A stretch of 64,000 nucleotides of DNA, taken from NCBI GenBank assembly GCA_000002435.2, contig CM018793.1; one strand, given 5' to 3'. Shown here in pieces: positions 23,474-56,749 of this stretch (its first letter is position 1; every line of letters starts with the position of its first letter). Origin of the DNA: Giardia intestinalis. Taxonomy: Eukaryota. The notes beneath the pieces are model-generated. The model saw nothing but the letters and a program-made list of their open reading frames with translations. It was not told the origin of the DNA and made no database searches. Both the position numbers and the translations under genes were made by a program.

Positions 23474-25744
23474 ATGGACTCTCTCGACGCTGCTGATCCT
23501 CGCGTTGCAGTAGCCACCATTGTAAATACGGCACTGTATTCTTCATACTCACATCTAATTTCACACGGACTTCCCTCGCAGCTTAATCATGCGTTGAATG
23601 TACTGAAAAGTGTCATTTTGGAGAAGCAGGACTGCCCAATCCTCGCCGTGAATCTACGGGTGAACTACGAGTTTACCTTCAGCAACCTCTCACTCATCTC
23701 TCTTGCTGATGCTAGCTTTATGGCTTGTGCGAAAAGGATTTGCCCAGGCCCTGTAACGAAGATGCTCATTCTGTCGTTTGCCTCTGCTATCCATGAGAAT
23801 GTCTCAGGGGTTGTTTTGGCTAGTTCTCTGGTCCAGAATATTCCCTGGTCCGTCAATGTACCTCTTAGCTACTTAGCCAACGTGTTCCAGACTTTCTCAG
23901 GGCTTATAAAAGCTTCCGAAAGCAAACTTGCCCGCGTTCTTTACATGTGCGTCAGTGTGGTGCTTTTTACGCTCGATCAGAGAAACTACACAGAGGAGCT
24001 TCCGTTTGATGCAGCACGAGCCAAGTTGACATCCAACGCGCACATTTCTAAAGCAACACCCATCATACGCGAAAGCATTCGTTCTCTGCTCTGGTCATTA
24101 AGCTGCATTTATGCGTACTATCTCTTACAGCACACCAGGGGTCAGGCTGACCCAGTCCGTGCGCAGGAGCTCTTGGTTTCTGTTTACGAAGACTTCGGAG
24201 ATCTCTTAAGCGGGGTACTTTCTCCACTAGAATGGCGTGCGCCCGAACATACTGTACCGGTTCATTTTTCGTTTCTCTCAGAATCAGAAGCTATGCGGAT
24301 AACGAATGATGTATTAATACAGCGTGCTTTTGTGATGAGAACGATTGATGATGAAGAAGAGCAGATTCTCAGTGAGATAGATGCCTGGCAAAGGACTGAA
24401 GAGGCAGCGCACGCAGAGGAGGCCTTTTTCCAGGACAAGCCTCTCGTAATCGCGGACACTGGGCAGAGGATACGTAGACACGGATCTCATTCTTCAGCTG
24501 CGCACGAGATGAAGGTACCTCTTTTTCCATTAAAGAAGTTTCAAGAGGCGAAGGATAGTGATGAAACCTATACCTCTGACTCTTATTCCTTTGGAGTAAC
24601 GTTTTCTGATGTCGATATCATACAGCGTCACATGGGCCCAGACTTCTGTATTCCTTTACGTGTCACTTTCTATGGTATGCTGGCTGTGCTTGTTGACGAC
24701 TCAGTGGAGACGGTGCGAAGAATGGCAATTTATGTGTGCAACACCATTATGGGAACAATCATTCAGCGCCTTAATTCGATTGATGACATATTACAACTGG
24801 ACGGCTCCCTTCTTTCTCCATCTACTCTCGACAGCCCGCATGTAATAGCTAAATACTGCAAGGTTATTACGCTTGCTCCCTACCACATCCTTCGTGAGAT
24901 ACTATACATTAATCAGGCTTTGCTCGCTGATTCAGCCATTGCGGTCAAGTATCTAATGGGAGCCATGCGTTTTATGTTAGCAGATCTAAAGCCGTGTGAC
25001 TTTCTTGCTGATCTTTCTAGCAACATCAGGGCAAACACCTCTCTTGATTCTCATCACTTAACTAAGAGAAACATGACATTTTTATTTTTGGATTCTATTT
25101 TCTATAAGCTTATGTTACAGATTGTTCACATGTCAGATTTAACGTCAGATATCATTGACACTTTGTTCTTGGGATATTTCCCAAGACTTTCTGTTTTTAG
25201 CACTCCGGGATCTTATGACTGTTTGGGGAAAATAAGGTTCTATCAAAATCGGTTGCGGGATAAGAAGCCGGTTCCAGAGATCGGAGAACTTATTCGGGAA
25301 GACATAAGCAAAGGAATTGATGGGATATATCACCTGCTTCAAATATTCAATATGTTCTACACTGATCTGCGAGCAGTACCCCTTCCACCCGAGCTTCTGA
25401 AGCACCTGCGTGAGGCGTGCTATCTGGGGGCTTTCATTTGTGGCTCTCGCCCCTTCCTTTGCGAGCTTTGTTGCAGCCCGCTACTAATGGGCTCCAATCA
25501 GGCACTTTCCAACGCATTTTGCTTAGACGTATTCGATGTCAAGACTGTCCAGTTAAAGCTGCGTGAAACTCTCCACGACTCTGTCATGGACAGATTGGGC
25601 AAGGGCGAGTTTTGCAACGAAATCCGCGTGGCATTTCTTTGGGGTTTTCTTCTTGCTCTTAGATACGCTCCCCCGTCCATTCAGTTTGTATGCGATCATC
25701 CTTGTTCTCCTTCTGCAGAGAGCCTTCGTTCATTTACTCAATAG
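23474..25744 (+). CDS. hypothetical, largely alpha-helical protein (756 aa)
   Basis: The track ORF starts at 23372 and overlaps the upstream gene in another frame. The ATG at 23474 (MDSLDAADPRVAV...) sits behind gaaattaaataaa, a textbook Giardia initiator, 20 nt after the upstream stop. Confidence 0.5.
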   Translation: MDSLDAADPRVAVATIVNTALYSSYSHLISHGLPSQLNHALNVLKSVILEKQDCPILAVNLRVNYEFTFSNLSLISLADASFMACAKRICPGPVTKMLILSFASAIHENVSGVVLASSLVQNIPWSVNVPLSYLANVFQTFSGLIKASESKLARVLYMCVSVVLFTLDQRNYTEELPFDAARAKLTSNAHISKATPIIRESIRSLLWSLSCIYAYYLLQHTRGQADPVRAQELLVSVYEDFGDLLSGVLSPLEWRAPEHTVPVHFSFLSESEAMRITNDVLIQRAFVMRTIDDEEEQILSEIDAWQRTEEAAHAEEAFFQDKPLVIADTGQRIRRHGSHSSAAHEMKVPLFPLKKFQEAKDSDETYTSDSYSFGVTFSDVDIIQRHMGPDFCIPLRVTFYGMLAVLVDDSVETVRRMAIYVCNTIMGTIIQRLNSIDDILQLDGSLLSPSTLDSPHVIAKYCKVITLAPYHILREILYINQALLADSAIAVKYLMGAMRFMLADLKPCDFLADLSSNIRANTSLDSHHLTKRNMTFLFLDSIFYKLMLQIVHMSDLTSDIIDTLFLGYFPRLSVFSTPGSYDCLGKIRFYQNRLRDKKPVPEIGELIREDISKGIDGIYHLLQIFNMFYTDLRAVPLPPELLKHLREACYLGAFICGSRPFLCELCCSPLLMGSNQALSNAFCLDVFDVKTVQLKLRETLHDSVMDRLGKGEFCNEIRVAFLWGFLLALRYAPPSIQFVCDHPCSPSAESLRSFTQ

Positions 25745-27353
25745 GCCTTTGGGCCACGATATTTGTGCTTTCCTTGAAAAATTTGACTGGGTGCATCAGA
25801 TCAATCCGGACATCCCCGTGGACTAATTCAAACAAGTGGTTACATGCCACCTTGGGTTCTCCTTCCCTCAGAGGTGCCGTTATGTACCCCAGCCATCCCT
25901 TGTCTTGGTGATTGCTAACAGCACAGAGGATCTTGTCCTCTATGTCCCGTTCATAAGCTGTCACTCTATAATTATTCTGTAGAAACGTTTTAAGTCGGGT
26001 AGGATCTCCAGTATTCTTGTCATACATATGCACAAAGGGACAGCCGTGTACTTCTAATTGCTGCCCGGACCTATCTCCAGTTGGAACAAGGGTTCCAATA
26101 GTATTACATCCACGACACATAGCTGGCTTACGCCCGCCAACCTTACCGTGGATGTGTTTGATATTATATGCGTACTCCCTGGTAAACTTCTCCTCAGGAA
26201 TCACTCGTGTGTAAAACGACTTCTGATATTCAAGGTCGTCTTCGCATGACATTCCACAGCTGTTAAAAAAGCTGGTCAGTTGCAGACGGGCTTGGTACTT
26301 AAGCTTGTTGTTTGCCTTCAAACCATTGATGCAGTGTAACATGCACGGGGGGATACACCCAGCACGAATGGCTGCGTCGATATTTTTCCGACTGAGCTTC
26401 CTATCTTCATCCAGCTGAACCTTTGCCTCCAAGCTATTAGAGTCTATGCGCGTTTGCCTAAGGATCTCTAGAAGCTCTGCAAATTGCGGTATCCGGATGT
26501 CTGAGACAGAGGCACAGATACTCTGAGACGCCTTGTAAATGGCTGTAAATTTGATCAGCAAGAGTGAAATTAAATCTTCTGCAGCCAATAGAAACATCCC
26601 CGCCACGCATGGCACACGTTTTGCGGCGAGCTCAATACATGCTGAAAACTTTTCGCGACGTGTGAGGTAAAACGTGGAGAGAGATAGTTCGACATACTCA
26701 ATTTCTTGTATTAGTCCTAGGCACATTGCTTTGATGTATCGAAGAGCCTCCCTGTCAGAATCGTTAGTTAAATTGGTAGGCCCTGTGGCAGGCAATCTAG
26801 AAATAGAGTCTAAGGTAAAAAGGACAGGGCCATTTTCGTCAGAGATAAGTAAATCAGACACCATATACAGATAGGACGAGAGAAGACAGCTGGTTCCTTC
26901 GCCCTTACTCTTGATATTGAGCGGAGCACAGGGTTCTCCCAAAGATGAGAGGACATGTCTTGGATGGCTTCCGGGGGCCAAAAATGCATGCACAAAGCGG
27001 GAAAAGGCAAGTATTCTCTCGCAATTCATATGCCATGCCCATGCATCCTTATCTGAGGCAAATGCAAACCGCAATAGCCAATATGATCGCGTATCCTGAT
27101 CAGTGGAAAACGGCAGCCCCACTAGCCAATTATGGTTACAGCCGTTCTCAGCAAAGGTTAGCCCTACATTATTGACCACGGTGGCATGATTTTCAAGCAA
27201 TCCGGTTTCTAAGGAGCCACGCCAGCATCTATCAAGCTTTTGAAGAATCTTCAACCGAAGTACCGCTTCTTTTTCGAATACCAAAACGGATCCTTTGAAA
27301 ATGCTGAAGTCATCCGGACGCAAAAACTGACTAAACGGAGGCGAGGTTTCCAT
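25734..27353 (-). CDS. DNA primase large subunit (PRIM2/PriL-like, 4Fe-4S domain)
   Basis: ATG at 27353-27351 behind taatttcaaaaaatactcaa. The C-terminal region YQARLQLTSFFNSCGMSCEDDLEYQKSFY ... FTREYAYNIKHIHGKVGGRKPAMCRGCNTIG ... QLEVHGCPFVHMYD parallels human PRIM2's [32 protein letters not shown] ... [27 protein letters not shown] ... DYHGCPFRHSD, including the Cys ligands. The 3' end overlaps the convergent upstream gene by 11 nt. Confidence 0.7.
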   Translation of the reverse strand: METSPPFSQFLRPDDFSIFKGSVLVFEKEAVLRLKILQKLDRCWRGSLETGLLENHATVVNNVGLTFAENGCNHNWLVGLPFSTDQDTRSYWLLRFAFASDKDAWAWHMNCERILAFSRFVHAFLAPGSHPRHVLSSLGEPCAPLNIKSKGEGTSCLLSSYLYMVSDLLISDENGPVLFTLDSISRLPATGPTNLTNDSDREALRYIKAMCLGLIQEIEYVELSLSTFYLTRREKFSACIELAAKRVPCVAGMFLLAAEDLISLLLIKFTAIYKASQSICASVSDIRIPQFAELLEILRQTRIDSNSLEAKVQLDEDRKLSRKNIDAAIRAGCIPPCMLHCINGLKANNKLKYQARLQLTSFFNSCGMSCEDDLEYQKSFYTRVIPEEKFTREYAYNIKHIHGKVGGRKPAMCRGCNTIGTLVPTGDRSGQQLEVHGCPFVHMYDKNTGDPTRLKTFLQNNYRVTAYERDIEDKILCAVSNHQDKGWLGYITAPLREGEPKVACNHLFELVHGDVRIDLMHPVKFFKESTNIVAQRPIE

Positions 27354-27391: not shown

Positions 27392-29452
27392 TTAGCCAGA
27401 ACTGCTCGAGGATGTGTCTGCCTGTAGAAAAATGAGAGAGGCATCCATAGAAGATTCGGCCTCAAAAATTGCTAGATCCTGAAGCTCATCACTTGGCGCT
27501 ACAGCTGATAGTCTCAAAGAGTGTCTCACCCGGTCTTCAGGACTAAATACAGACATAGGGCTTATGGCAGTTTCTGCGCATACTTTATCAGACGTAAGCG
27601 TGCTCGTCTGACTATCTTTGATAAGCCCCTTTTCAACCAGCAGAGCCAAGCATGCAGCTCCTGCTTGTACATCCTTTCCATCTTTAGCCTGTCGTACCCA
27701 GCATTTAGTATGATAGACAACTCCACGCTTTTTATTATCAACGATGTCATGCTCCACGTCAATGAGTACGCTCATACAGGTAGCCTTTCCATTGCGGGCA
27801 GCGTGTATGAGAGCTGTGTATCCCCGTTTATCGCGCATACGATGCTCTAAGTGTGTGTTAGATGGCTCAGTGGTAGAAAGGTCGATCATTCCTTTGACAA
27901 ACTCTACGGCCCCAGCTGCCGCCGCGAGCATAAGCGCTGTTCGTCCATTCCTTCGCGTCATCCGGCCTTCTACGGGTAATAAGTACTTTAACGACTCCGG
28001 CATATTACGTCTGGCAGCCACCATCAGGGCTGTGCTTCCACTCTTAGTTTTAATCTTCTTCTCCAATGGGACCAGCATTTCAACGGATGTCCACTTACGG
28101 CGAATGATAGCCAGCATAAGAGAAGTTAAGCCTATAGTCGTGCGAAGGCCTCTTTCATGGGGAGCTAAAAGCTCGATCACTTGGACGTGTCCCTTTTCAG
28201 CAGCCATCATCAATGCCGTCTTCCCCCGCTCAGTTTGCATCTTTGCTTCAGTTGGTATAAGCTGGGACACAACGCTAACGTGGTTGTTAGATGCGGCATA
28301 CATCAGGGCTGTCTTACCACGGGCAGGACTATCGCGACTGATAATCTGAAGTCTAACTTCACTAAGAAGAAAAGGTATAAGCGCTGCATGTCCATGCTGA
28401 GCCGCGTACATAAGCGCAGTTTTACCCAGAAAAGTCGCCAAACCACATTGATCTAAATGCGCTATGGCCCGATCATAGTCACCAGATGATGCTGCGCTCA
28501 TTAAATCAGTTAAATCCGAAAAGGGTATCTGTGCATCTGTAGTGCAAAGATTACGGTTATCAAGTGCGATCTTCGTGTCCTTAATTTTAGAGAATAGTGA
28601 TGACTTTAGAAGATCACCTGCTGCTGGACGTGAATCTGGAAGCAAGGAAAGCAAACTAAACAAAGTTTCACGAAGTTGTGGAGAATAGTGGGAAAGCAAT
28701 GGATTATCTTGCAGCGTGTTAACAAGTGTATCAAGAGAGATGCCCTCGGGTGCTTGCAAAGTACACATAGTATAAATGAGCATCCCGAGAGACCACATGT
28801 CGCTCTTGGTACTCCAAGTACCTTTCTCGAGGGCTTCTGGTGCAATAAATACGTCCATATTTGACGCAAAGCTGTACTTGCTAGAGCTGTAGGGTGTGCT
28901 GTTTGGAAACAAGTAAGCCATATCGCACAAGGCAACAGAACCATCCCAACGTAGCATCACATTATTCAGATGAAGACGCCCATGAATGAGCTCGTTCACG
29001 CGGGGAAGAGTACTAGCTGGCGCAGCTGTCTTAGGGGAGATGCCAGTAGTAGATCGGTGCTTGAATTCGTGAAGATAGTGTAAGCCTTCAAGGATTTGCT
29101 TTGCGATCTTTAACACCGTATACTCAGACATATCAAGGCAGGAGTCTCGATAGCTCTGTATAAGATGGCCTAGAGGCTCCTTACATAACTCTCGTATCAA
29201 GTAAATAGTACCTGAGCCCGGGCACTGGAACGCTCTGTAATAACAGGCTAGGGTCTGAGTCTGCAACAACGTATACATGTGACCATCGGTTATGCATGGA
29301 AAGATCATGCGGGAGGGGGTGCACCGAGGCGTCAAAACCCGAAGTGCCCTATGCTTCTTTACAGAGACATCCATAACTTGATACGTTGCCGACCCGTGGG
29401 ATTTCTGCATGGTGGTACAGATCTCCAGGCCTAGGGCACGAGGAAGATCCAT
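27392..29452 (-). CDS. NEK-family protein kinase-like domain (probably a catalytically dead pseudokinase) fused to Giardia-type ankyrin repeats
   Basis: The track start at 29455 is a TTG. The ATG at 29452 follows ggtacactttattg. The kinase fold is recognisable (LKIAKQILEGLHYLH, APE in FIAPEALEKG, SDMWSLGMLIYTM), but HRD is replaced by HGR (HGRLHLNNVML), DFG by DMA (LCDMAYLF), and the VAIK Lys by Arg (RALRVL). Seven or more ankyrin repeats follow (GKTALMYAAQHGH, GKTALMMAAEKGH, GSTALMVAARRNM, GYTALIHAARNGK). Confidence 0.75.
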   Translation of the reverse strand: MDLPRALGLEICTTMQKSHGSATYQVMDVSVKKHRALRVLTPRCTPSRMIFPCITDGHMYTLLQTQTLACYYRAFQCPGSGTIYLIRELCKEPLGHLIQSYRDSCLDMSEYTVLKIAKQILEGLHYLHEFKHRSTTGISPKTAAPASTLPRVNELIHGRLHLNNVMLRWDGSVALCDMAYLFPNSTPYSSSKYSFASNMDVFIAPEALEKGTWSTKSDMWSLGMLIYTMCTLQAPEGISLDTLVNTLQDNPLLSHYSPQLRETLFSLLSLLPDSRPAAGDLLKSSLFSKIKDTKIALDNRNLCTTDAQIPFSDLTDLMSAASSGDYDRAIAHLDQCGLATFLGKTALMYAAQHGHAALIPFLLSEVRLQIISRDSPARGKTALMYAASNNHVSVVSQLIPTEAKMQTERGKTALMMAAEKGHVQVIELLAPHERGLRTTIGLTSLMLAIIRRKWTSVEMLVPLEKKIKTKSGSTALMVAARRNMPESLKYLLPVEGRMTRRNGRTALMLAAAAGAVEFVKGMIDLSTTEPSNTHLEHRMRDKRGYTALIHAARNGKATCMSVLIDVEHDIVDNKKRGVVYHTKCWVRQAKDGKDVQAGAACLALLVEKGLIKDSQTSTLTSDKVCAETAISPMSVFSPEDRVRHSLRLSAVAPSDELQDLAIFEAESSMDASLIFLQADTSSSSSG

Positions 29453-29561
29453 CAATAAAGTGTACCTTGGACATTTGGACAGTCAATTTAAAATGGCATG
29501 AAAACTGAGCATATTTTGTTTTAGCCAAATTTGGAATCCCTACTCCTTCTGCACTTAGAGG

Positions 29562-32528
29562 ATGCGGCTCACACTGGCCATTCACAAAGCGTTTGCAACT
29601 CAGAAAGCGAAACGAGAGGAGATCGATTTTGTGATTAGACCGAATTCAGAGGAGAAGACAATCTCTGTTTCGTTACTGGTGAAGCAGGAGGTAGCCGCAG
29701 TTTGTGAGGTCGCTGCAGCCTATCGCAACTTTGGATCATCAGCCCTTGTTTCTGATTTGGCAAACATCCTTCGTGCAGTGTCTGCTGGTAACGAGTTTTC
29801 TATAGTTGCGATCTCTACCAATAGCGATCGCTTTGGACCCCTATTTCCATATACAACAAACACAATAGAGCCATCTATGCTAGGACAGATCATAAGTACA
29901 GTACGTGACGAGCTTAAACAGACGAAGAAAGCACCGGTGCGGTATTTGATAACCCTTTCTTGCTTATGTATCGCGCAACGTGGCCGTGTAGTCGATATGC
30001 TTTTCCCAGATAACACCGAGCTTAGCCTAAGCAGAGATGAAGCCGGTAATGTGTATTATGAAAATCTAGCAGAGGTGGCATGTTCTTCAAATGATGAGCT
30101 TGCTGCCATTCTGTTGGCAATTCAAGGCGAGTATACACGAGTGGCCGAAGCTTCTAGGCAAAGTGAAGTAAGCCCAGTAAGCCCACCCCGTGATCAAAGC
30201 ACAAAAGAAACGAAAGTACCAGCTCTTCGCCTCAATATTGCGGTGCGTCAGTATAAGATGACAAGAAAGGACGACAGCGAGTCTGACAGAGAAACTGAAA
30301 CATTGACACTTGACGCGACTTCATCATCTGGTGGTTTACAGCTATCGCCTCCTGGTGAAAAGATCAAGCCTCATGAAAAGCCTGCAAAGGGGCACTTCTG
30401 GAAGGAGATTTCTACTGGGAATATGAGCTTTTACTACATTACTCTACAAGACGTTCTCGGAATACTCAGTAAAACATCTCGTCTCAGCACATATGTACTT
30501 CCAGAGATGAACAGACCAAACTCTAGTGCATTCTTCGAAATAAGTCCCGAAGCAGATTCTAAGCTATGCCTAATGGCCTTTGACCTCATGAATGACCTTC
30601 TTCATAGGTGCTCGCATGCCTGGAGAGCTGCAGGCGTTAATATCTTTCGTCTCAACGAGGCGCAGTCTCATCGCTCAGGGTCTACCGATCTTGTCTCTAG
30701 TCGCCCTCGCTCCCGCTCCTCCAGGAGCTACTTCACAATGGAAGATCTTGACACTTGTGATGATATCACTCCGCAGATTAATGTTCGGCGCATCGAAAGG
30801 CAGACTGAAGCGGAAAAGAGGTGCAGCGAGTTTAAAACCCAAATATCCAAGCAAGCACAAGGATACCAAGACCAACCTGTAACTAGGGCTCCAGCAACAT
30901 CCTTGCAAAAGGGCTCTATCTCCAGGCACAGTGATTCGGAAGAGTCTGCTGATGCTTTTCAGCTAACCTCCGCCCAGAAGCCTACCATTCTCAGCAAGAA
31001 GCAGCGACGAGCGTCTAGTCGCACCGGAAAAGCGACAGTGCAATCGCGTGGATCTATGACAGGCACACGCCTTTCATCCATAACCGCTGCTTCTACCCCC
31101 ACGCAAGGCAGTACTGTACATCGATTGAACGCTGAGGTTCCCGATACAGCAACGAATCTGTCAAAATTTACACACATGCTTCATCTTACCAGCAAACTAG
31201 CGGAGGAGGAAGACAAAACGCAGTCTAAAAAGGGTTCTGGCTCTGCTGGCAAGCGTACAGGCCAGATACCGGAGCAGCAGAAGCGCTCTGAGTCTCGCCG
31301 GACACTGTCCCCGACGATTGTCCGTCCACGAGAGCAGTCTGCTGCTGATGCACGCATTGAGCGGGCACATATGACTGCCAAGCAAAGTCAGAGCCCCCAC
31401 GTGGGGGGTATTAAGACTGTGAGTAGCATGCTTGAGAAAACAGAGCTCCTCAATCTTAGCAGGGGAAGCTCAGTCGGCAGTAGATCCGAGAGTAAGGGAA
31501 AAATTCGGCCTATGAGCCATGAGCATGCGTCTCCACACTCTTCTAAGGGAGCGCAGATGGCGTCTCCAACTCGCAGAGCCAGTAGAGCCAGTGACCGGCG
31601 CGCGAGCACACAAAGCCCAACCCGTAATAGATCAGAACTGGACATTCTTTCACAGTATAGATCCATGCGCATCCCTGCAGATGAAAATGGCCAGTTTGAC
31701 ATGTTCTCTAAGATGCAACTTGAAATAAAGCGATTAGCACGTGAGTTGGAAGAAACTCGTATTGCTAAGGTCGTTACAGAGTCGGGAAGAAATAATCTAG
31801 TGGCGGAGAATACTAGACTGAGAGAAGAGATTGCTAGTTTAGTGGAGAATCAAAAGTACAAGACTCACACAATTAAGCGGTTGGAGAAGCAGCTCATGGA
31901 AGCCAGGGCAAAGCCTGCAAAAATGCATAACTTAGTGACCCAAGGTGTGACTCAAACCCCGGTAAGTTCCTTGGGAGGCAAAAAGCAACACTCATACGAC
32001 GATCTACTTTTGGAAGTGGAGTCTCTGCAGGCGTTAAATAATGAACTACAGGCAGAACTAGCTGGACACCGGAATCAGCTCTGTAAAGAGTCCACTTATC
32101 CGTCAGAAGATGTCAAAGAATTACCTCCAGATACAGCAATGCGTGAACTTCAAATACTCTTGCAGAACTGTATGACTGAGAACAAAAACTTGCGGCTCGA
32201 AGTTGTTGCGCTACAAGAGATGCTTGATGTTCAGCGTCTGTTAGCACGCATCTCACCGAGGACAACCAGTGGAGACGATTCTTCTATTAAGCAGCAACTT
32301 GATGAAGTGATTACAATAAACAGGCAATACGAAGTACAAATATCAAAGCTCGAAAGGGCGGTGGCGGCTGCAGATGAAAGGCTGAATCTCTACGAGGCAC
32401 GTCAGAGCCGAGAAGCACTTCTTGTGGAAACCATCACACAGTTACGAAGCCAAATCCATCACATGACTAAGAAACTCCTTGCTTATGAACACCAAGCAGG
32501 GGATGGTGCTTCTCCACGAGCTAAGTAA
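29562..32528 (+). CDS. coiled-coil protein, paralog A (988 aa)
   Basis: ATG at 29562. The C-terminal 330 aa are heptad-rich coiled coil. The stop TAA is overlapped by AGTAAAT (32524-32530). Strong similarity to the adjacent paralog B; details in the findings. Confidence 0.65.
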   Translation: MRLTLAIHKAFATQKAKREEIDFVIRPNSEEKTISVSLLVKQEVAAVCEVAAAYRNFGSSALVSDLANILRAVSAGNEFSIVAISTNSDRFGPLFPYTTNTIEPSMLGQIISTVRDELKQTKKAPVRYLITLSCLCIAQRGRVVDMLFPDNTELSLSRDEAGNVYYENLAEVACSSNDELAAILLAIQGEYTRVAEASRQSEVSPVSPPRDQSTKETKVPALRLNIAVRQYKMTRKDDSESDRETETLTLDATSSSGGLQLSPPGEKIKPHEKPAKGHFWKEISTGNMSFYYITLQDVLGILSKTSRLSTYVLPEMNRPNSSAFFEISPEADSKLCLMAFDLMNDLLHRCSHAWRAAGVNIFRLNEAQSHRSGSTDLVSSRPRSRSSRSYFTMEDLDTCDDITPQINVRRIERQTEAEKRCSEFKTQISKQAQGYQDQPVTRAPATSLQKGSISRHSDSEESADAFQLTSAQKPTILSKKQRRASSRTGKATVQSRGSMTGTRLSSITAASTPTQGSTVHRLNAEVPDTATNLSKFTHMLHLTSKLAEEEDKTQSKKGSGSAGKRTGQIPEQQKRSESRRTLSPTIVRPREQSAADARIERAHMTAKQSQSPHVGGIKTVSSMLEKTELLNLSRGSSVGSRSESKGKIRPMSHEHASPHSSKGAQMASPTRRASRASDRRASTQSPTRNRSELDILSQYRSMRIPADENGQFDMFSKMQLEIKRLARELEETRIAKVVTESGRNNLVAENTRLREEIASLVENQKYKTHTIKRLEKQLMEARAKPAKMHNLVTQGVTQTPVSSLGGKKQHSYDDLLLEVESLQALNNELQAELAGHRNQLCKESTYPSEDVKELPPDTAMRELQILLQNCMTENKNLRLEVVALQEMLDVQRLLARISPRTTSGDDSSIKQQLDEVITINRQYEVQISKLERAVAAADERLNLYEARQSREALLVETITQLRSQIHHMTKKLLAYEHQAGDGASPRAK

Positions 32529-32530
32529 AT
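32524..32530 (+). terminator. AGTAAAT poly(A) signal overlapping the stop of paralog A
   Basis: ctaAGTAAATgg with TAA at 32526-32528. Confidence 0.5.
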
Positions 32531-32602
32531 GGCGGCAGCAGCTTCCTACGTTTTGCGCACCATTTCCTTGAATTCTAATTAGTGAGATTTCCAAAATAGG
32601 AA

Positions 32603-34066
32603 ATGCCTGCAAAGGAGCGAAATCAGAGCCCAACAACGCGTGTCCGCGCAGCTTCTGGCCCCAAAAACCAGCTTGCTGAAGAGCCTGCTGTGAGAGCCCC
32701 GTCAAAGTCGAAATTGATCCATCAAGAGAAGCAGGCCAATATAACTCCTAAGCGTCCAGACACAGATCGCCGTGCTAGCAGGGGCCAGCCTCGTGGACCT
32801 TCTCCGACTCAAGCAGAGCGGTCTGCATCTGGGCGCAATCATCGTGCCGCTCTCCCTGCCTCCCAACGCACCAACAACGACAAGCATACCCCCAGCCCGA
32901 AAATTGACAGCGAGACCCTTCTTGCATACAAAGCCATGCGTGTGCCCTCAGATGAACAGGGCCAGTTTGATATGGTTTCAAAGATGCAGCTAGAAATAAA
33001 ACGCCTTGCCCGCGAACTCGATGAGACCCGTGCGCAAAAGGTTACGGTTGAAGCAGGAAAAAACGATCTGATAGCGGAAAACGCACGCATGAAGAAGGAG
33101 CTTAACGATGTTCTATCGAACCAGAAGTACAAAAATCACACTATTAAGAAGTTGGAAAGGGAGACAATAGAGCTGAGGGCCCGACTGGAAACAGAAAGAA
33201 GCTCATTTGTTTTGCGTCTTGCCGAAAATAATAGCAAGAATAACACTCCTGGGTCTAGAGTATCAAGTCACTCCCCACGCAGGCAGTCACCCAAGCCCTC
33301 TGCTAACGGCTCTCCAAAGGGTCCTATATGTGACAAGTGCAAGGAGAAAATAAGATCTGGTCAGTACCCCGCAGGCTCTGTCCCCTTACGAGCCGAGGAC
33401 GGGTCCTTGGAGCCACAAGAGTATAAGATTCCGGATCTGTATCTAAGAGAGGACCCCTCCCGACCTGAGTCCCAAGAGTTTCAGGTTGCAGCACCAAACG
33501 TCCTTGTATCTACGGAGAAAGACAACGCTTCATGGAAAAAGGAGCTTGAACATCTCCAGAAGGAGAATAAGGCTCTCCGCGGGGAGCTTGAAGCATTAAC
33601 AGTCATACAAAATGACGGTCACAGTCACCTGGATGTTATACAGAAAATGAACGACGATTTGGATAGGGTATTAGAGGAACGCTCAACTCTCCAACAGGAC
33701 GTCGCTTATTGGAAAGCCCAGTGTGAGCTGGCCAAGGCACAGAATGCCAACTGTGACGTTGACCAGCACGCAAGCGGATGTAGCAGGGAGGAACTTCTTG
33801 CGTGCCAGGCGCTTAATGCTGAGTACGAGAAGAAGCTTGCTGCGACTAGTGAGCGTCTCCGCCTTGCAGAAGAGCAGCTCAAGCCGTATTTAGAGGCCAA
33901 GGGCCGTGAAAAGGCTCTTATCGAGACCGTTACTTCTCTGCGTGCTCAGCTGCAAGATATGACCAAGCGTCTGTTGGCGTACGAGCAGAACAAATCACCA
34001 AGGTCTGCTAGGGCTAAATCTAACGAAAGCCTTAAAAAGGCCAACAAGCCGGCTGGCAAGAAGTAA
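32603..34066 (+). CDS. coiled-coil protein, paralog B (487 aa), tandem duplicate of the C-terminal module of paralog A
   Basis: ATG at 32603 behind ccaaaataggaa. Shares with paralog A the blocks MR[IV]P[AS]DE[NQ]GQFDM[FV]SKMQLEIKRLAREL[ED]ETR, NQKYK[TN]HTIK[RK]LE[KR] and a terminal ...LLAYE[HQ]... motif. The stop is followed by AGTAAAATA. Confidence 0.65.
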   Translation: MPAKERNQSPTTRVRAASGPKNQLAEEPAVRAPSKSKLIHQEKQANITPKRPDTDRRASRGQPRGPSPTQAERSASGRNHRAALPASQRTNNDKHTPSPKIDSETLLAYKAMRVPSDEQGQFDMVSKMQLEIKRLARELDETRAQKVTVEAGKNDLIAENARMKKELNDVLSNQKYKNHTIKKLERETIELRARLETERSSFVLRLAENNSKNNTPGSRVSSHSPRRQSPKPSANGSPKGPICDKCKEKIRSGQYPAGSVPLRAEDGSLEPQEYKIPDLYLREDPSRPESQEFQVAAPNVLVSTEKDNASWKKELEHLQKENKALRGELEALTVIQNDGHSHLDVIQKMNDDLDRVLEERSTLQQDVAYWKAQCELAKAQNANCDVDQHASGCSREELLACQALNAEYEKKLAATSERLRLAEEQLKPYLEAKGREKALIETVTSLRAQLQDMTKRLLAYEQNKSPRSARAKSNESLKKANKPAGKK

Positions 34067-34139
34067 AATACTCTTTGCGAAGATGACCCTTCGTTCTTTA
34101 CGACCCCTCGTATTCATAAGCTTCTCCACTGTTATAAAA

Positions 34140-34508
34140 ATGTCAGACGATCTACAGAAACCTACGCCTCAGAAGTCAGAGCAAATAATTGATAGTTCTA
34201 ATTTGGATTGCAATAGCGGATTGATTGCGCGACACTTTCAAGTGGCCCTTACAACTGAGGATATGTCTAGAGAGGCAGAGCCCCCCTTGAAGAGCCTTAC
34301 AGACGACTTTGGAAAATGGCGTCCTGTTCAGTTGCCAGCCGGTGCAGCACCCCTTACCATACAGCGAGCTGTGACCCTGTTGAGTAGACCTGCCCTAAAG
34401 CAACGATCTGCTCGGCGAAAATCTTCCGCCACTCTTCCTCTTACAGCCAGTACGGCCACCAGGACCAAGCACAGCAAGACAGGAGAGCAGGACGGAAACA
34501 ATGTATAG
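34140..34508 (+). CDS. small hypothetical protein (122 aa)
   Basis: The track ORF starts at 34083. An in-frame ATG at 34140 (MSDDLQKPTPQKSEQ...) sits behind gttataaaaa, a much better initiator. No known domain. Confidence 0.35.
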   Translation: MSDDLQKPTPQKSEQIIDSSNLDCNSGLIARHFQVALTTEDMSREAEPPLKSLTDDFGKWRPVQLPAGAAPLTIQRAVTLLSRPALKQRSARRKSSATLPLTASTATRTKHSKTGEQDGNNV

Positions 34509-34546: not shown

Positions 34547-36844
34547 TCAGTTTCCGAGGAAGATCTCCATCCTCTTTTGCGAGTCGGCGTCTCCCCACTT
34601 CGCCTGAGCGGTTCGCGCTAAAGACTCTGCCTGACGGCTACGCTCATCTTGATGATGAACTCTGAAAAGCTGCGAGCACTTTGCAAGAACCACGGGACGC
34701 TCTCTTCGTACAAGGAGAACGCTGGCTAAAGCAAGGAACCTGTTCAGAATGGCAGCCTCCTCGCCCTCTGGAAGCTTGACGCTAGCAACGACACTCATCA
34801 TCTCGCACAGTATCTGGCACTGCTGCCTAGAACTGTGGAAGCACTCATAGACAAGAATAGCTGCAGCAAGCTCGTTATAGATATCGTCCTTGGTGAAGGT
34901 CTCAGTGGAGAAATAGGAGCCGCTCATCGCTTCTATGATGGACTTAGTGTTGTCGATGTGGAGCTTTATCGCAGCTTGTTGATCGATGTCATCCATCAAG
35001 CTGGCAACCCTACCTGCCTCGCGAAGATACCCATCACGATGACAGACATAGAAGAGACTTGGATATATATCTGCCTTCGCTTCCGTCGGCAGCTCGTAGT
35101 TTGGATTCATAAGCATGTTATAGCAATCAAGAGCACCGTGGAATGATTGAATGCACTTCGCGAAAAGGAGACAGTCAGTATGCGCAAGAGTATAAACGTT
35201 CTCAAAGCAGAACTTGCCCAACATAAGGGCCCTTTCGTTATTTCTAGCGTATTCCTCGGGGGAAACAGTGAGCGGGTTTTCCAGAAGAGCATATGCGACG
35301 CCCAAACTGAAATCCCTCATAAGACGGTCCGACTTCTGCATAAGATAACATTTGAGTGCGCGAGATGGCAATAGTCTAAGGTACTCTGGCATCATAGATG
35401 CCTTCATCCTTATGAGCGGCGAAGTAAGAGTCTTCACAATCGAGTCATCATCGCGCTCCAAGAGCTGCACTGGTTGTATCTGCGGCAGATGTCTGTTCTC
35501 GACCTGTTCGGCATACGACCTGATGTGCTGCTCTGAGCAGTGAGGGAAAATTATGCCAATCAGAACGTTGAGGGCAGACGTTAGCTTGCTCATATCCTCA
35601 GGCCAGACACGAGACGAGAATACCAGAAGAGCGTTGATGCAAGAAATCCAAGCGCTATCCATGATCATGCCTGTGACCTTGTCAACATGCTCCAGACCCT
35701 TTGACGCTATCTCCTGAAGTACCGTATTGCAAAGTCCTGTTCCTGCTTCACAGAATCTCCTATACAATTCTTCAGTAATCGTGATCTTCTCCTTCTCCAA
35801 CGAAAGACGGTCTAGCAGAATGATGAAAGACTTGACACCGTGGCATCCACTAACGACAGCAGCAAAAACATCGTCTAATGCAACGAAGAGCTTGTTGATG
35901 TTGATATGGGCGCAGACACCCTCCAGAATAGTTGCGGTGGACATAGGGTCACTGCTGAGTTTTACCTGGCGAAGCACCTCGACAAGTACATCTGCCTGGA
36001 GACCATCTATTGTGCATAGCTTGGCAATCTCCTTGAAACCAGTGCTGATCATTTCGGAGAGGTAAATGCGCCTCTTGTCGCGTCTGTCTGCTTCCTTACG
36101 CGTTCGCGCCGGGTCGTACTGGGTACGGACCCAGAAACGGTTCATCTCAATATAGTTTCGCAATAAAAAGTCCAAAGTGATGTCGACATCAGCAACGACC
36201 ACGTACGGCTCACTCAGATCAAAGTCAAGATGCGGGCGCAGTACCTCAACTATATAGTGGCGCAGAAAGAGGTGGCGTAAGGGATTCTGGACACCACGGC
36301 AGAACTCGTGCAAGTCAAGAACTATGTTGTTCTTAAGCTCACGGATACTGTCCATAGTGGTAGGCATCCCAAGCTTCAGTAGCTCAGCAGGAGCTGTGTC
36401 CGGATTCGCATGGAGGAACTTCCTGGCATTGTTGAGGTGCTCCAGCCAAATAGACGCAGCAAGGGCCATTAGATACAGGCGCGGTATGACGATGGTTGTG
36501 CGCTGTACGAAGACATAAAGCTGGTACGGGCTCATGATGCGCCCAAGTGGGTTCTCTGTAATCGATGAGAAGTACTGGCGAAGGGAGACCAGGAATTCAG
36601 AGACCTTTTCGTAGAGTTTCTCATACCCAGCAGGCTCCAGAAGCGTAGTCTTAAGAAGGAAAGTGCATTCTATCGCAGCGGTTGTTATAGCCATGTAATT
36701 CGACTGGTCTGCGGCGCGCACATTATTGAACTTCGATATCCTAAGGCCCAGATCTTCTAGCTGCGCAGTGAGCCACTGCTCCTGCAGAGGACGAGCCTGT
36801 ATCTGGCGCAGGTATTCAGGGTCTACTTTGGTCTGGAAAGCCAT
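34547..36844 (-). CDS. VPS35: vacuolar protein sorting 35 (retromer cargo-selective subunit)
   Basis: ATG at 36844-36842 behind caaaaataaa. Signature blocks: TTIVIPRLYLMALAASIW (human NIIPRLYLLITVG), HEFCRGVQNPLRHLFLRHYIVEVLRP (human [26 protein letters not shown]), and LDFLLRNYIEMNRFWVRTQYD...RRDKRRIYL (human [21 protein letters not shown]...RDREKRERE). Confidence 0.88.
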   Translation of the reverse strand: MAFQTKVDPEYLRQIQARPLQEQWLTAQLEDLGLRISKFNNVRAADQSNYMAITTAAIECTFLLKTTLLEPAGYEKLYEKVSEFLVSLRQYFSSITENPLGRIMSPYQLYVFVQRTTIVIPRLYLMALAASIWLEHLNNARKFLHANPDTAPAELLKLGMPTTMDSIRELKNNIVLDLHEFCRGVQNPLRHLFLRHYIVEVLRPHLDFDLSEPYVVVADVDITLDFLLRNYIEMNRFWVRTQYDPARTRKEADRRDKRRIYLSEMISTGFKEIAKLCTIDGLQADVLVEVLRQVKLSSDPMSTATILEGVCAHININKLFVALDDVFAAVVSGCHGVKSFIILLDRLSLEKEKITITEELYRRFCEAGTGLCNTVLQEIASKGLEHVDKVTGMIMDSAWISCINALLVFSSRVWPEDMSKLTSALNVLIGIIFPHCSEQHIRSYAEQVENRHLPQIQPVQLLERDDDSIVKTLTSPLIRMKASMMPEYLRLLPSRALKCYLMQKSDRLMRDFSLGVAYALLENPLTVSPEEYARNNERALMLGKFCFENVYTLAHTDCLLFAKCIQSFHGALDCYNMLMNPNYELPTEAKADIYPSLFYVCHRDGYLREAGRVASLMDDIDQQAAIKLHIDNTKSIIEAMSGSYFSTETFTKDDIYNELAAAILVYECFHSSRQQCQILCEMMSVVASVKLPEGEEAAILNRFLALASVLLVRRERPVVLAKCSQLFRVHHQDERSRQAESLARTAQAKWGDADSQKRMEIFLGN

Positions 36845-47540: not shown

Positions 47541-49247
47541 CTACTTTGGAACCCTTCCTAGTCCATCAGAGGGTCGCTTCATCGGATCACGGTATCCCAG
47601 GGCCCCGCGAATGCCGCCTGAACTGGCGAGCCGATTGGCTGGAGCTAGCGTGTTATTACTCAGCTGTAAGAAGCGGGAAGGCGCGGGATGCACGCTGACC
47701 CCTGTAATCAAAGAACTCGCCCCAAGGCGCGCTTTAGAGCCTGACAGAGCTTTTTCCATGGTCCCTGCCATCGAAATAGCAGCTGTGGAAGCTGACTCAA
47801 GTCCTTGGTTCGTCCCCATCTGCGTAAGTGGCACCGTTCCAGGGATCACAGAGCTCTGCAACGAGCTTCCATGACCATGCTTAACATCATTATGCCACGA
47901 TCCTTCGTAAACGCTCCCATCGGAGTACTTGCAGATGCCAGTGCCTTCACGAAGATTATTAGCAAAGGACCCCGTGTAGACGGACCCATCCTCGTAATAC
48001 TGAATTCCTTGGCCGTTTCTCTGGTCATCCTTCCAGGCCCCTTCGTACTTGCATCCATTAGCCTCCTCGAAGGTTCCATTGCCTTCGCGCACATCGTTGA
48101 GCCACTCGCCTCTGTAAACACTGCCATCTGGATAGCGGCACGTTCCTCGGCCAGCTCTCTTGTCGCCATTGTAATGACCTGAATATGTCTCTCCATTTGC
48201 GCGCACCTGGGTGCCTTGGCCACATTTGTTCCCTTCAAAGAACTCACCTGTAAAGCGTGTCCCATCTGAGTATTGAATGGACCCACTCCCATGAGCAAAG
48301 CCATTGCGAAACCCGCCCTCATAGACACTGCCATCTGTAAACTCTATACGGACCCGTTCGCCAAGAATCTCGTCGTTCCTGAACTCTCCTACCCACCGTG
48401 TTCCATCAGGAAGAGTCAGGACACCAGGTCCATGCCGCCTATCATTGTTCCACCTTCCTTCATAGACAGAGCCATCGGTGTACTTCATAGTTCCGGTTCC
48501 AGACCGACAATCATTGCACCATTGACCCGTGTATGTACCTCCCTGTTCCTCGCCTGGATCGGGCGCGTACAGCATGGTTCCTCGGCCATTGCGTTTATCA
48601 TCTACCCACTCGCCTTGGTATCGGGAGTTGCCGTCTACCATAGTGCCAGTGCCATGCCGCTTACAATTGAGAAAGTCGCCACTGTATATGGCTCCGTTGA
48701 CAAGAAAGAGCTTGCCTTGGCCGCACATAAGGCCCTTGACCCATTCGCCCTCGTACCGGCTTCCGTCGGCAAACTCACACGTGCCCTCTCCATCAGGAAC
48801 CTCGTCCCGGAAGTTACCGACGTAGCGTTCTCCCGATGCATATTTAAGGCTACCGTGGCCATCACTCCTTCGGCCCTCACAGAAATTGCCTTCGAAGATG
48901 TCTCCGTTGGGTAATTGGACTTCCCCCTTGCCATGTGGAAAGTCATTTTGCCAGTTACCCTTGTAAATGGTTGTATCCGGATACCGGCAAGTCCCATATC
49001 CTGAACGCACGTTGTGCTTGAACTCACCTTGGTATGACTCGCCAGACGCTGTCTCCAGCTCTCCAATCCCATGCCGCATGTCGTCCTGAAAGTCTCCTCT
49101 GTATCTATCACCGCAGGTTGCATTCGTTGTCTCCTTAAGAGTGCGGGCCAGATGTTCATTTGCAGTCCCTCCTGTGGGCATACGAGGCGCCAACTGAGAT
49201 CGACTCAGATCCGCTGCTCCAGAGCGAAACGATCCTGCGCGACTCAT
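47541..49247 (-). CDS. MORN-repeat protein (about 20 tandem MORN units)
   Basis: The track start at 49262 is a TTG; the ATG is 49247-49245 (MSRAGSFRSG...). Repeats fit the MORN pattern Y-x-G-x-[WF]-x-x-[GDN]-x-x-x-G-x-G, for example YQGEFKHNVRSGYGTCRY, YKGNWQNDFPHGKGEVQL, YEGEWVKGLMCGQGKLFL, YEGRWNNDRRHGPGVLTL. Confidence 0.85.
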   Translation of the reverse strand: MSRAGSFRSGAADLSRSQLAPRMPTGGTANEHLARTLKETTNATCGDRYRGDFQDDMRHGIGELETASGESYQGEFKHNVRSGYGTCRYPDTTIYKGNWQNDFPHGKGEVQLPNGDIFEGNFCEGRRSDGHGSLKYASGERYVGNFRDEVPDGEGTCEFADGSRYEGEWVKGLMCGQGKLFLVNGAIYSGDFLNCKRHGTGTMVDGNSRYQGEWVDDKRNGRGTMLYAPDPGEEQGGTYTGQWCNDCRSGTGTMKYTDGSVYEGRWNNDRRHGPGVLTLPDGTRWVGEFRNDEILGERVRIEFTDGSVYEGGFRNGFAHGSGSIQYSDGTRFTGEFFEGNKCGQGTQVRANGETYSGHYNGDKRAGRGTCRYPDGSVYRGEWLNDVREGNGTFEEANGCKYEGAWKDDQRNGQGIQYYEDGSVYTGSFANNLREGTGICKYSDGSVYEGSWHNDVKHGHGSSLQSSVIPGTVPLTQMGTNQGLESASTAAISMAGTMEKALSGSKARLGASSLITGVSVHPAPSRFLQLSNNTLAPANRLASSGGIRGALGYRDPMKRPSDGLGRVPK

Positions 49248-49286
49248 ATGCAGCTGTTCCAACGAGATAATTTTTTAAAATTTTAC

Positions 49287-52200
49287 TTATGCTAAGCCAG
49301 TCATCTCGATGTCCTCGGCAAAGGTAGAAAGACTATCCAGTACTTTAAGGGTTCGGAGTGTTGGTCTGTCGCAAACCTTCAGAAGTGCACGGCGAGCAAT
49401 TGGAAGTAGGGGCCACGTGGCCAAAATCTGGCTGATCACCAGGAAGAAGGAATCCCGCGGAACATTATCTGCCTTGCAGTAGTCTATGTTTGGGTTTCTA
49501 TATGGCATGGAATTGTCGACAAGGATTCCGATAGCAGTGGAGGCTTGCTGAACGTCTGGCTCGTACGCAGACAGCAAGTAATTACAGTACATGAGTATCT
49601 GTGACTCAAATACGTTGAGCCTTTCTCCACTTCTTAGGCTAGATATCACTACTAGCTCATTGGCGTGGGCGAACTTTTTGTTTCTACGCTGGATCTTCGC
49701 ACCCTCTATGCTAATCTGTTGTATGAATGCATTGATAATATCTTCGTTATCATTATCATGCATTAAATAAAATGCAACCTCTTTTGGTAAAGACCCAATG
49801 AATTTCCGACACAGAGCCTGAAACCTGTCTGTAAGTGATGCAGCCGTAAGTAATTGACCGCTTGGTACCATCTGGCTAGTGGGTTGTTGGAGTCTAGCGT
49901 CTATACTTGCCTTAGAAATAATAATGCCTGCTGTGCAGCCGCATGGCAAATATGCTCGAGGATTAGTAACGTAGCTGTCTGCCTGCATAAGCCTCATGCC
50001 CTTAATTCGCGCTGTCCCCCTAGTAGCCATAATGTGCAGTGGAGTTTTTACGGGGGTGTCTAGTTCATTTGTAGGGGTAGATTGCAGCTTTTTAGGCTGA
50101 TCGTTTTCATCTTTTTGGGGCACCTCTATCAGCCCAAGCGCCTTATACCTCTCTTCAAGCTTGAACGTCCTTAGAACAAAATCCTTGTCATAAATATTCT
50201 CCAAGTTGAGCCAAATGTAATCGACTGCGCTGTCACTAGATAGCTCGACTGGCAAAGGGCTTGTTGTGGTAGTGGTATACTTTAGCAACGTCTTTATTTC
50301 TTCCATCTTCTCGTCTGTAATATTTAGTGATAGAGCAGAAGAAGACTGTTGGTGTACGGGCATCCGTTCTCGAAAATTTAGAGACGACGCGATGCTCATT
50401 CCTATGTTAATGTTTGCACCCGCCATGTTTGCGATATGCAGTGAGGTATCCATCAACATATTGTGTGAGCGTCCCCCAGCATGGTGGTTGTCCTCGTGGG
50501 GGGTCCCGCGAGCATGACTGTTAGCAACAGAGACACCCTCTGTCTGCGTCATTGTTGTGTGACTACTGTGTATGCTCCTGAGGGGGGTCATAATAAAGGT
50601 TTCCACTTCCTCATTTGAAAGGAGTTTGGCACGGTAAAATGTATCAAACAGTTCCACAGGCGGGAGGCATCCGTAAGACTCGCCAGAACGTGATAGACGA
50701 GTGACCTCCCAGCCTAACTTATCAACAAAGTAACTCCTTATACGGGCATTGAGGCAGCAATGGCTTATACAAAGGGTTGCGGTTTGTTTAACCTTATATG
50801 AATCTGAAAAAATTGCCAGATTGTGCAGGAGGTGTAAAAGAAGAGGCGGAAATTTCCAATCGTGCTTGTAGTGGATAAATGATTCATTAGAAGCAGAACA
50901 CTGTGAGGATGTTTCGTAGAGATGAGACGTTGAGCAGCTCGTCTTATTAAATATATTTGAAATCGTTCCTCCTCTATGACTACAAACTGTGTGCATCAGT
51001 TTTCCGCGTGTACTAAGCATGGGGGCGTCGCCAAGGCTTAAGCCTGTAAGCTGGTAGCCGGGAATATTACTGATCAGACCAGTACCCCCGAACGCATTAG
51101 TCATGGAGTTTATTGGGTTCCAATTTGTGACTCCAGACTGTTCTCCCGCGGTGATGAAGCTGCTAGCAACGCTGTGGCATGTATACACCGAATGGATTGA
51201 TTCATCGTCATTACCGTCCAATGTTTCATTACTAATTGAGATAGAATCTTGTCGCAAATAGTTGCATGAGGGATCCAGTGACGCCTTTGCAATTATCTCT
51301 TTGAAGCCTGCCTCTGACTGGGCAATGAAGGCAATTGACCAGAGAGATGCTCTATACTGTAGCGTAAATCGATTTTCTACAGGGTTGAGCAATATCTCCA
51401 TGATTGTCTTGAAGATGCCTGTCTTGATAATCAGCTCACAGCCTTGTGGCGTTTTGGCCAGTTCTGCTAGAAGGCATGGACGGAGGTGGGTAGGTAGAAT
51501 ATTGGACACTCTGTTTCGATGAGAGGAATCCGGACCATTATACTGATTCATATAGTCGCTGAAGAAACCACACGGGTTAGACATGCCCTTATTTAGCCGT
51601 CCGGTCATTGCCTCTGTTGTCAAAAAGGATAGCGCTGAGGCAGGCCTTTCGAAGCCAATCGACGTACTGCTAGCGGTGTCCTTCTCCCTGATCTGTCCAG
51701 TGTTGGCAATGAACAGCTCACGAAACGCAGGTGGCATGTCAATCGACGAGTAGGGCAGATAAAGACTAGACCTTCCTAAACGTGTGTGATGTGGCATCAC
51801 CAAGTGGTCATACATTAGCTCGTCAGCTTTGTAAAAGGTTAATGATGCCGCGTCCCCCCTAACTCTATATGGAATTTTTTCTTGGAAAAAAGCTGGCAAG
51901 GAGTAATTCTGTGCAATTCCCAAATCAATATTCGAGTATATTCTTGCCTCTAGATTAAGGGTCCACTCCATGGCTGGAGCAAGACCATTGGCCCAATATT
52001 CCAGTAGAGGCATAAGAATGTTCTTTTCATCTTTAATGTAATGCAATCCTGCAGGACAGGAAGCCAACCGTTCGATAAGAACCTCTCCTATTCGACCATA
52101 TGTCACAAAAGATGGTTTTAGTGACACTATATATTCAAGAATAAGCACATTCTTTTCAGAACTAAGCTCCTCTAAGGCAATAAGGGCACAGATTGCTATT

Positions 52201-56690: not shown

Positions 56691-56749
56691 AGACCTACCC
56701 AAATAATTTACAAGGGTGAGCTAGGTAGAGAGTTAATTCTCTTGAGATT

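Follow-up and report, generated by a model that had tools for sequence, protein, structure and literature searches.

An ancient tandem gene pair of Giardia duodenalis: a predicted kinesin-fold pseudo-motor and its headless paralog

How did two neighbouring genes of Giardia duodenalis come to share a conserved coiled-coil segment, how old is the pair, and what does the longer gene encode in the part that the shorter one lacks? The genes, GL50803_16050 (gene A) and GL50803_92760 (gene B), are both annotated as hypothetical proteins and lie on the same strand of a 64-kb stretch of genomic DNA, which we analysed at its full length and refer to as the window. Comparison of the two proteins with each other and with their orthologs demonstrates that A and B are ancient tandem paralogs, both kept by purifying selection. 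Taking the explanation as a whole, we consider it probable that A is a kinesin-derived, non-catalytic pseudo-motor that has previously gone unrecognised, and that B is a paralog without a head.

Paralogy, age and constraint of the A–B pair

A BLASTP comparison of A with B gives a composition-adjusted E value of 4e-38, with 31% identity across 431 columns and 24% gaps, and the similarity is concentrated in two ungapped collinear blocks that together define a shared cassette (N block and C block; Table 1). The N block opens with a non-coiled motif, Y[RK][SA]MR[IV]P[AS]DE[NQ]GQFDM, and is identical at 54 of 91 residues (59%; A695–784 against B105–194); in the C block 25 of 67 residues are identical (37%; approximately A905–979 against B390–464). 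Smith–Waterman alignment of the pair scores 385, whereas 300 shuffled versions of B score 48.7 ± 7.8 and at most 74 (z = 43). A preliminary description of the locus had proposed same-strand tandem paralogs with a collinear conserved coiled-coil cassette, quoting motifs that we find in both genes and naming identity below 25% with gaps as the level that would speak against it; the proposal holds, with every identity value above that level. Both tails are rich in Leu, Glu, Lys and Arg and weakly match many unrelated coiled-coil Pfam families, but we give practically no credence to generic coiled-coil composition without homology, in view of the composition-adjusted E value, the shuffle statistics, the 91 ungapped residues that include a non-coiled motif, the conservation of surface heptad positions, and a next-best match of the cassette in the window of only 24 bits (tblastn, E = 0.3). 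On these sequence comparisons, the similarity of A and B is homology.

The preliminary description had further called the duplication young-looking and proposed measuring the divergence of the shared region, and it is on this point that our results depart from it most clearly. Synonymous sites have reached saturation between A and B (pS 0.83 in the N block and 0.92 in the C block), and positions with the same amino acid in both proteins share their codon at the rate predicted from codon usage alone (0.38 observed against 0.36 expected, and 0.44 against 0.41). The pair is kept in every G. duodenalis assemblage sampled, including a divergent assemblage (locus L002) in which an A of 998 amino acids (aa) and a B of 482 aa lie adjacent between the same flanking genes at 69% and 76% identity. 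The arrangement extends to locus L003, from a G. muris-like lineage in which A has 88.7% identity to its G. muris counterpart: an A of 878 aa is followed, after a spacer of 4 bp, by a B of 371 aa, then by a small open reading frame (ORF) and by Vps35 on the opposite strand. The window, L002 and L003 have this order in common. Neighbour-joining analysis of the C block unites every B sequence in a single clade (97% bootstrap support), and support remains at 96% when N-block columns 41–90 are added. Because synonymous sites are saturated, synteny extends to the G. muris-like genome and B is monophyletic, the duplication predates the split of the G. duodenalis and G. muris lineages. A young origin, with B a recent copy of the 3′ half of A and the blocks its not yet diverged remainder, would fit the adjacent, same-strand, collinear arrangement and the 59–89% A–B identity of the pre-coil motif and first coil within G. 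duodenalis, but the saturated sites, the codon-usage level of shared codons, the preservation of genes and order across such divergent assemblages and into a G. muris-like genome, and the B clade make it highly improbable.

Both genes are functional and under purifying selection, and B is the more constrained of the two. Relative to a 98.9%-identical locus (L001), A differs by 21 synonymous and 11 non-synonymous changes (pN/pS 0.16) and B by 14 and 2 (pN/pS 0.04). The comparison with L002, in which dS is near saturation, gives dN/dS values of approximately 0.14 for A and 0.04 for B.

Further copies of the cassette, for which the preliminary description had proposed a search, did not appear: the 64-kb window holds no third copy, and an exhaustive search with a profile against 1.84 billion representative proteins yielded, at E < 1e-10, nothing but A and B orthologs, all of them Giardia-type sequences. 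One of the loci concerned, L004, includes a protein (P0045) whose called start seems to lie too far downstream, given that tblastn similarity starts at position 9941. Beyond these orthologs, P0048, a 104-aa exon of an intron-rich eukaryote contig (locus L005), is 47% identical to A729–783; it encodes ...EKMVAESGRNQLTEENRQMKEEI...LRIQKLEREL and matches with tblastn at E = 1e-9 locally and at E = 2e-4 in the 1.84-billion-protein search. In the protein database P0048 is a singleton with no named relatives, and it gave no link to a wider family. Other candidates were set aside. Pfam searches with full-length A and B gave only sub-threshold coiled-coil families (HR1_TOCA, HALZ, Nuf2_DHR10-like, TMF_TATA_bd and Mto2_bdg), none of them meaningful. 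We took P0047, a repeat protein of 578 aa (E = 1.4e-5), for a generic coiled coil. The dynein-adaptor CC1 box (AAxxG) was considered for the motif E[AS]G[KR]N.L..EN and rejected, since the spacing differs by one residue, the two Ala residues are not conserved and Pfam gave no BicD or HAP1 match.

Table 1 Features of the A–B locus, its neighbours and its relatives
Feature	Position	Strand	Length or residues	Remarks
Gene A	29562..32528	+	988 aa	ORF; GL50803_16050
Globular N-terminal domain of A	29562..30746	+	aa 1–395	conserved; core ~aa 57–350 with predicted kinesin motor fold, non-catalytic
P-loop equivalent of A	29814..29837	+	aa 85–92	STNSDRFG instead of GQTxxGK[ST]; opposite KIF5B GQTSSGKT in hhalign
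Switch II equivalent of A	30441..30458	+	aa 294–299	TLQDVL instead of DLAGSE; end of predicted strand 278–294
Ser/Thr/Arg-rich linker of A	30747..31640	+	aa 396–693	presumed disordered
Cassette N block in A	31644..31913	+	aa 695–784	pre-coil motif (YRSMRIPADENGQFDM), then ~9 heptads of coiled coil
Cassette C block in A	32274..32498	+	aa 905–979
AGTAAA over stop of A	32524..32529	+
A–B spacer	32529..32602	+	74 bp	A/T-rich immediately 5′ of B start codon
Gene B, headless paralog	32603..34066	+	487 aa	ORF; GL50803_92760
Cassette N block in B	32915..33184	+	aa 105–194
B-specific non-coil insert	33314..33502	+	aa ~238–300	GPICDKCK..RSGQYPAGSVPLRAEDGSL.PQ.Y..PDL; single CxxC
Cassette C block in B	33770..33994	+	aa 390–464
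AGTAAA over stop of B	34062..34067	+
Small ORF between B and Vps35	34083–34508	+	141 aa as listed
Vps35	34547–36844	−		neighbour gene
Kinase with ankyrin repeats	27392–29455	−		neighbour gene
DNA primase large subunit	25734–27353	−		neighbour gene
Two variant-specific surface protein (VSP) genes	15804–18257, 18899–20377	−		most G+C-rich part of window
G. muris GMRT_23273			877 aa	A ortholog; profile search
A-like protein, locus L004			798 aa	profile search
A ortholog, locus L004	L004:9941–12777			Logan SRR31929897; third Giardia-related lineage
B-like protein, locus L003 (P0046)			371 aa	muris-like B; profile search
P0048 exon, locus L005	L005:1075–1413			Logan SRR31563895 contig, 8259 bp; adjoins Tctex-1 and TTC21-like fragments

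The head and linker of gene A

Upstream of the cassette, A carries a long segment that the preliminary description had characterised as a Ser-rich region of approximately 650 residues. That description suits the linker at residues 396–693, which is 15.8% Ser, 10.1% Thr and 10.1% Arg and conserved in sequence among assemblages (dN/dS 0.14 relative to L002), but not residues 1–395, which are strongly conserved among orthologs and form a globular domain with a predicted kinesin fold. In a Pfam scan of residues 1–410, PF00225 (Kinesin) was the sole match among 24,736 families (E = 0.038), with A residues 106–193 in register with profile positions 102–188. An hhalign comparison with the KIF5B motor is likewise collinear (A53–183 against 48–183), and the P-loop position begins at residue 85 in both proteins. 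We modelled the head with AlphaFold2 (AF2) without templates from seven sequences, including those of G. muris and L004, and obtained a predicted template-modelling score of 0.64 with predicted local distance difference test (pLDDT) values of 70–90 across most of residues 57–350. When this model was compared with the PDB by Foldseek, the top 50 matches were all kinesin motor domains (E values from 1.3e-11 to 2.6e-9). The model argues strongly that residues ~57–350 of A adopt the kinesin motor fold.

The elements on which catalysis by kinesins depends in sequence terms, namely the P-loop Lys-Thr, the SSRSH of switch I and the DxxGxE of switch II, are gone in every A ortholog. At the P-loop position G. 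muris has GADGSGLG and L004 has APNGGPNP; the Lys-Thr/Ser pair is kept in no ortholog and the pattern GxxxxGK[ST] is absent. At the switch II position, where G. muris has SLADAI and L004 has SLHDII, the pattern DxxGxE is likewise missing, and no SSRSH-like switch I precedes strand 221–235 of A, the switches being placed by secondary-structure register and hhalign rather than by superposed coordinates. From the switch II position to the next strand (SAFFEIS, residue 322) A has 28 residues compared with 64 in KIF5B, and so approximately 36 residues would be gone where L11, alpha4, L12 and alpha5 lie, leaving this region much reduced. Judged from sequence, the shortened segment between switch II and beta8 raises doubt about canonical microtubule binding. 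Relative to the kinesin superfamily, A would thus share the motor-domain fold, on the predicted model, but at a sequence identity of just 9–15% and with a Pfam score below threshold, and it carries an extra low-confidence insert of approximately 45 residues at 236–277. A fails sequence-defined tests for a kinesin and is best described as a kinesin-fold pseudo-motor among the catalytically dead relatives of kinesins.

The layout of A also bears on the origin of B. Kinesins are typically built as a motor head with a coiled-coil tail behind it, and for this reason it is likelier that B arose as a partial 3′ copy starting inside the linker, and never had a head, than that A gained one. B carries in addition a non-coil insert of its own (Table 1), which is nearly invariant in four B orthologs and lies opposite gaps or non-homologous sequence in A; it cannot be recognised in P0046, the muris-like B. 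In both proteins a basic, Ser-rich stretch containing RRxS and SP motifs lies shortly before the cassette (window positions 31500–31640 and 32750–32810); it reads SDRRASTQSPT in A and TDRRASRGQPRGPSPT in B, and alignment programs did not pair the two. These stretches are likely to be regulatory phosphorylation sites.

Proposed dimerisation and docking, and a possible mosaic cassette

A home-made heptad scan, which is not a calibrated predictor, marks residues 744–784, 806–890 and 903–984 of A and 121–208, 299–380 and 429–466 of B. A single heptad register fits A from I722 to A781, with a weak core at 732–743, and places Asn750, invariant in all A and B sequences, at an 'a' position. Asn at 'a' is typical of parallel, in-register dimers. 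Conservation by heptad position is 0.78 for a and d, 0.79 for e and g, and 0.65 for b, c and f. These features of the sequence make it plausible that the cassette mediates dimerisation, and its conserved surface suggests that both proteins bind the same partner. Pairs between g and e′ positions include 2–3 attractive and no repulsive contacts, alike for A–A, B–B and A–B, so that the sequence would permit a heterodimer of A with B without favouring it.

The explanation that we hold to be probable combines these elements as follows. A would consist of a kinesin-fold head of approximately 350 residues without P-loop, switch I or switch II and with a shortened alpha4/L12 segment, then a Ser/Thr/Arg-rich linker of approximately 300 residues, and then a tail of two conserved coiled-coil blocks. 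B would have arisen by tandem duplication of only the 3′ part of A and would comprise the end of the linker and the tail without the head. The duplication preceded the split of the G. duodenalis and G. muris lineages, both copies since being kept by purifying selection. For the cassette, a two-stranded coiled coil that is parallel and in register, with the invariant Asn at 'a', is the most likely structure; because the surface positions of the cassette are also conserved, it probably doubles as a dimerisation module and a docking surface for a common partner. B might then either pair with A, so that the complex has a single head, or rival A for the partner or docking site.

Several observations weigh against this explanation. 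The PF00225 score of the head is 13.4 bits, below the gathering cut-off of 29.3; the hhalign comparison with KIF5B gives E = 0.086, short of significance, and both that comparison and the motif spacing rely on a KIF5B sequence entered by hand; and profile searches of PDB sequences (A1, A2, A5) found no kinesin, only chance-level coiled-coil matches. The fold rests on an AF2 model of only seven sequences with a mean pLDDT of 62, and a first model from six close orthologs was unusable (pLDDT 37), a usable one being obtained only after the G. muris and L004 sequences were added. The heptad assignment comes from the home-made scan, and the g–e′ charge pairs do not discriminate homodimers from heterodimers. 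In the Giardia-related lineage L004 there is no B between A and Vps35, an observation that concerns this locus only; Vps35 lies 95 bp after A on the same strand, with no small ORF between them either, a layout that indicates a local rearrangement in which B was lost, relocated or never gained there. Finally, no localisation, expression or interaction data for A or B were found in the literature searched.

Within the cassette, the phylogenetic signal is not uniform. N-block columns 1–40, which cover the pre-coil motif and first coil, join the two G. duodenalis paralogs in one group (99% bootstrap support), unlike the C block, which groups by paralog. Pre-coil identity between A and B within G. 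duodenalis is 59–77%, compared with 36% between the A proteins of G. duodenalis and G. muris and 0% between the B of G. duodenalis and the muris-like B. The grouping of the first 40 residues by species suggests either old gene conversion or lineage-specific constraint. Conversion between A and B after the G. muris lineage had split off and before the assemblages radiated would make the cassette a mosaic and would add to, rather than replace, the explanation set out above; it would account for the opposed groupings and for the identity values, but the signal comes from only 40 columns in a distance tree, the same pattern would arise if an ancestral motif had been kept in G. duodenalis and lost separately in G. 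muris A, muris-like B and L004 A, and the saturated synonymous sites give no signal either way. We regard such an event as nearly an even call, falling a little on the negative side. Recent gene conversion is ruled out by the frequency of shared codons, which equals expectation.

A different arrangement would have A and B each form homodimers, with the cassette surfaces of both binding one further component, such as a docking site on the cytoskeleton, and B acting as a headless competitor or regulator. It draws on the conservation of b, c and f positions, nearly as high as that of the core (0.65 against 0.78), on g–e′ pairs that are as favourable for A–A and B–B as for A–B, and on the conserved insert that B has and A lacks, but nothing in the sequence excludes A–B pairing, since the two paralogs have mostly the same residues at core positions; we treat exclusive homodimers as a tentative alternative that has a real, though minority, share of the probability. 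A and B could instead be obligate heterodimers, each a one-headed, non-catalytic kinesin-fold complex that acts as a static component of some microtubule structure particular to Giardia, whether the ventral disc, the median body or elements associated with the axonemes. The 5′ part of the cassette would then be a mutual interface, kept matched between the two genes by gene conversion. We consider this unlikely.

Genomic setting, related systems and significance

The window derives from G. duodenalis. Gene A is 98% identical to DHA2_152405 and shares a 90% cluster with GL50803_0016050 / XP_001709304.1, and gene B clusters with GL50803_0092760 / XP_001709303.1. Both genes have an AGTAAA overlapping the stop codon, as the preliminary description had pointed out. 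AGTAAA is the general polyadenylation signal of Giardia, and since it occurs at the stop of 6 of the 26 long ORFs of the 64-kb window, its presence at A and B is a general Giardia feature that carries no trace of the duplication. The neighbouring genes are of kinds typical for Giardia (Table 1). The small ORF between B and Vps35 has no Pfam match. Genes of 122, 146 and 96 aa are called at the corresponding place in L001, L002 and the G. muris-like L003, respectively, and the L002 copy is 67% identical to the ORF of the window over 114 aa (E = 4e-46). The window also carries several ankyrin-repeat proteins, two VSP genes (G+C 0.51–0.57, compared with ~0.46 in the rest of the window) and a CFAP91 homolog; the last, together with a MORN-repeat protein, is a flagellum- or cytoskeleton-type gene (5996–8242 and 47541–49262, both on the minus strand). 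An ORF of 2471 aa lies at 49287–56702 on the minus strand.

Besides the kinesin superfamily itself, the known systems closest to A are Vik1 and Cik1 of budding yeast, motor-homology-domain proteins that serve as non-catalytic partners of the kinesin-14 Kar3 (PDB 2o0a, 4gkq; PMC3384419, PMC4338441), and the structural axonemal kinesins KIF9 and KLP1 of the central apparatus (PDB 9ijj, 7n61, 3nwn). A and Vik1/Cik1 would have in common a motor-like fold without a nucleotide-binding site, that of A being a predicted model, but this domain is C-terminal in Vik1/Cik1 and N-terminal in A, and no sequence relationship between them was detected. Their partners differ as well: the coiled-coil partner of Vik1/Cik1 is a catalytic kinesin, whereas the candidate partner of A, B, has no head of any kind. 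B is the only protein that shares the coiled-coil cassette with A and contains no motor domain, and an obligate A–B heterodimer, if true, would represent a Vik1-like solution without any catalytic motor. Neither gene number is mentioned in the searchable literature, where matches to the bare numbers were fragments of digital object identifiers, and neither is listed in the ventral-disc proteome supplements searched.

Tandem paralogy alone is ordinary; what this locus adds is a cryptic pseudo-kinesin, a conserved headless paralog and a possible conversion tract. As a kinesin-fold pseudo-motor, GL50803_16050 would add a hidden member to the kinesin repertoire of Giardia, one that sequence-based surveys would overlook because its Pfam score lies below threshold. 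The A–B pair offers a clean case of an ancient partial duplication that gave rise to a headless paralog under stronger constraint than its parent. For these two lineage-restricted genes the analysis provides a testable hypothesis, that their products may associate with microtubule structures and may dimerise through the shared tail.

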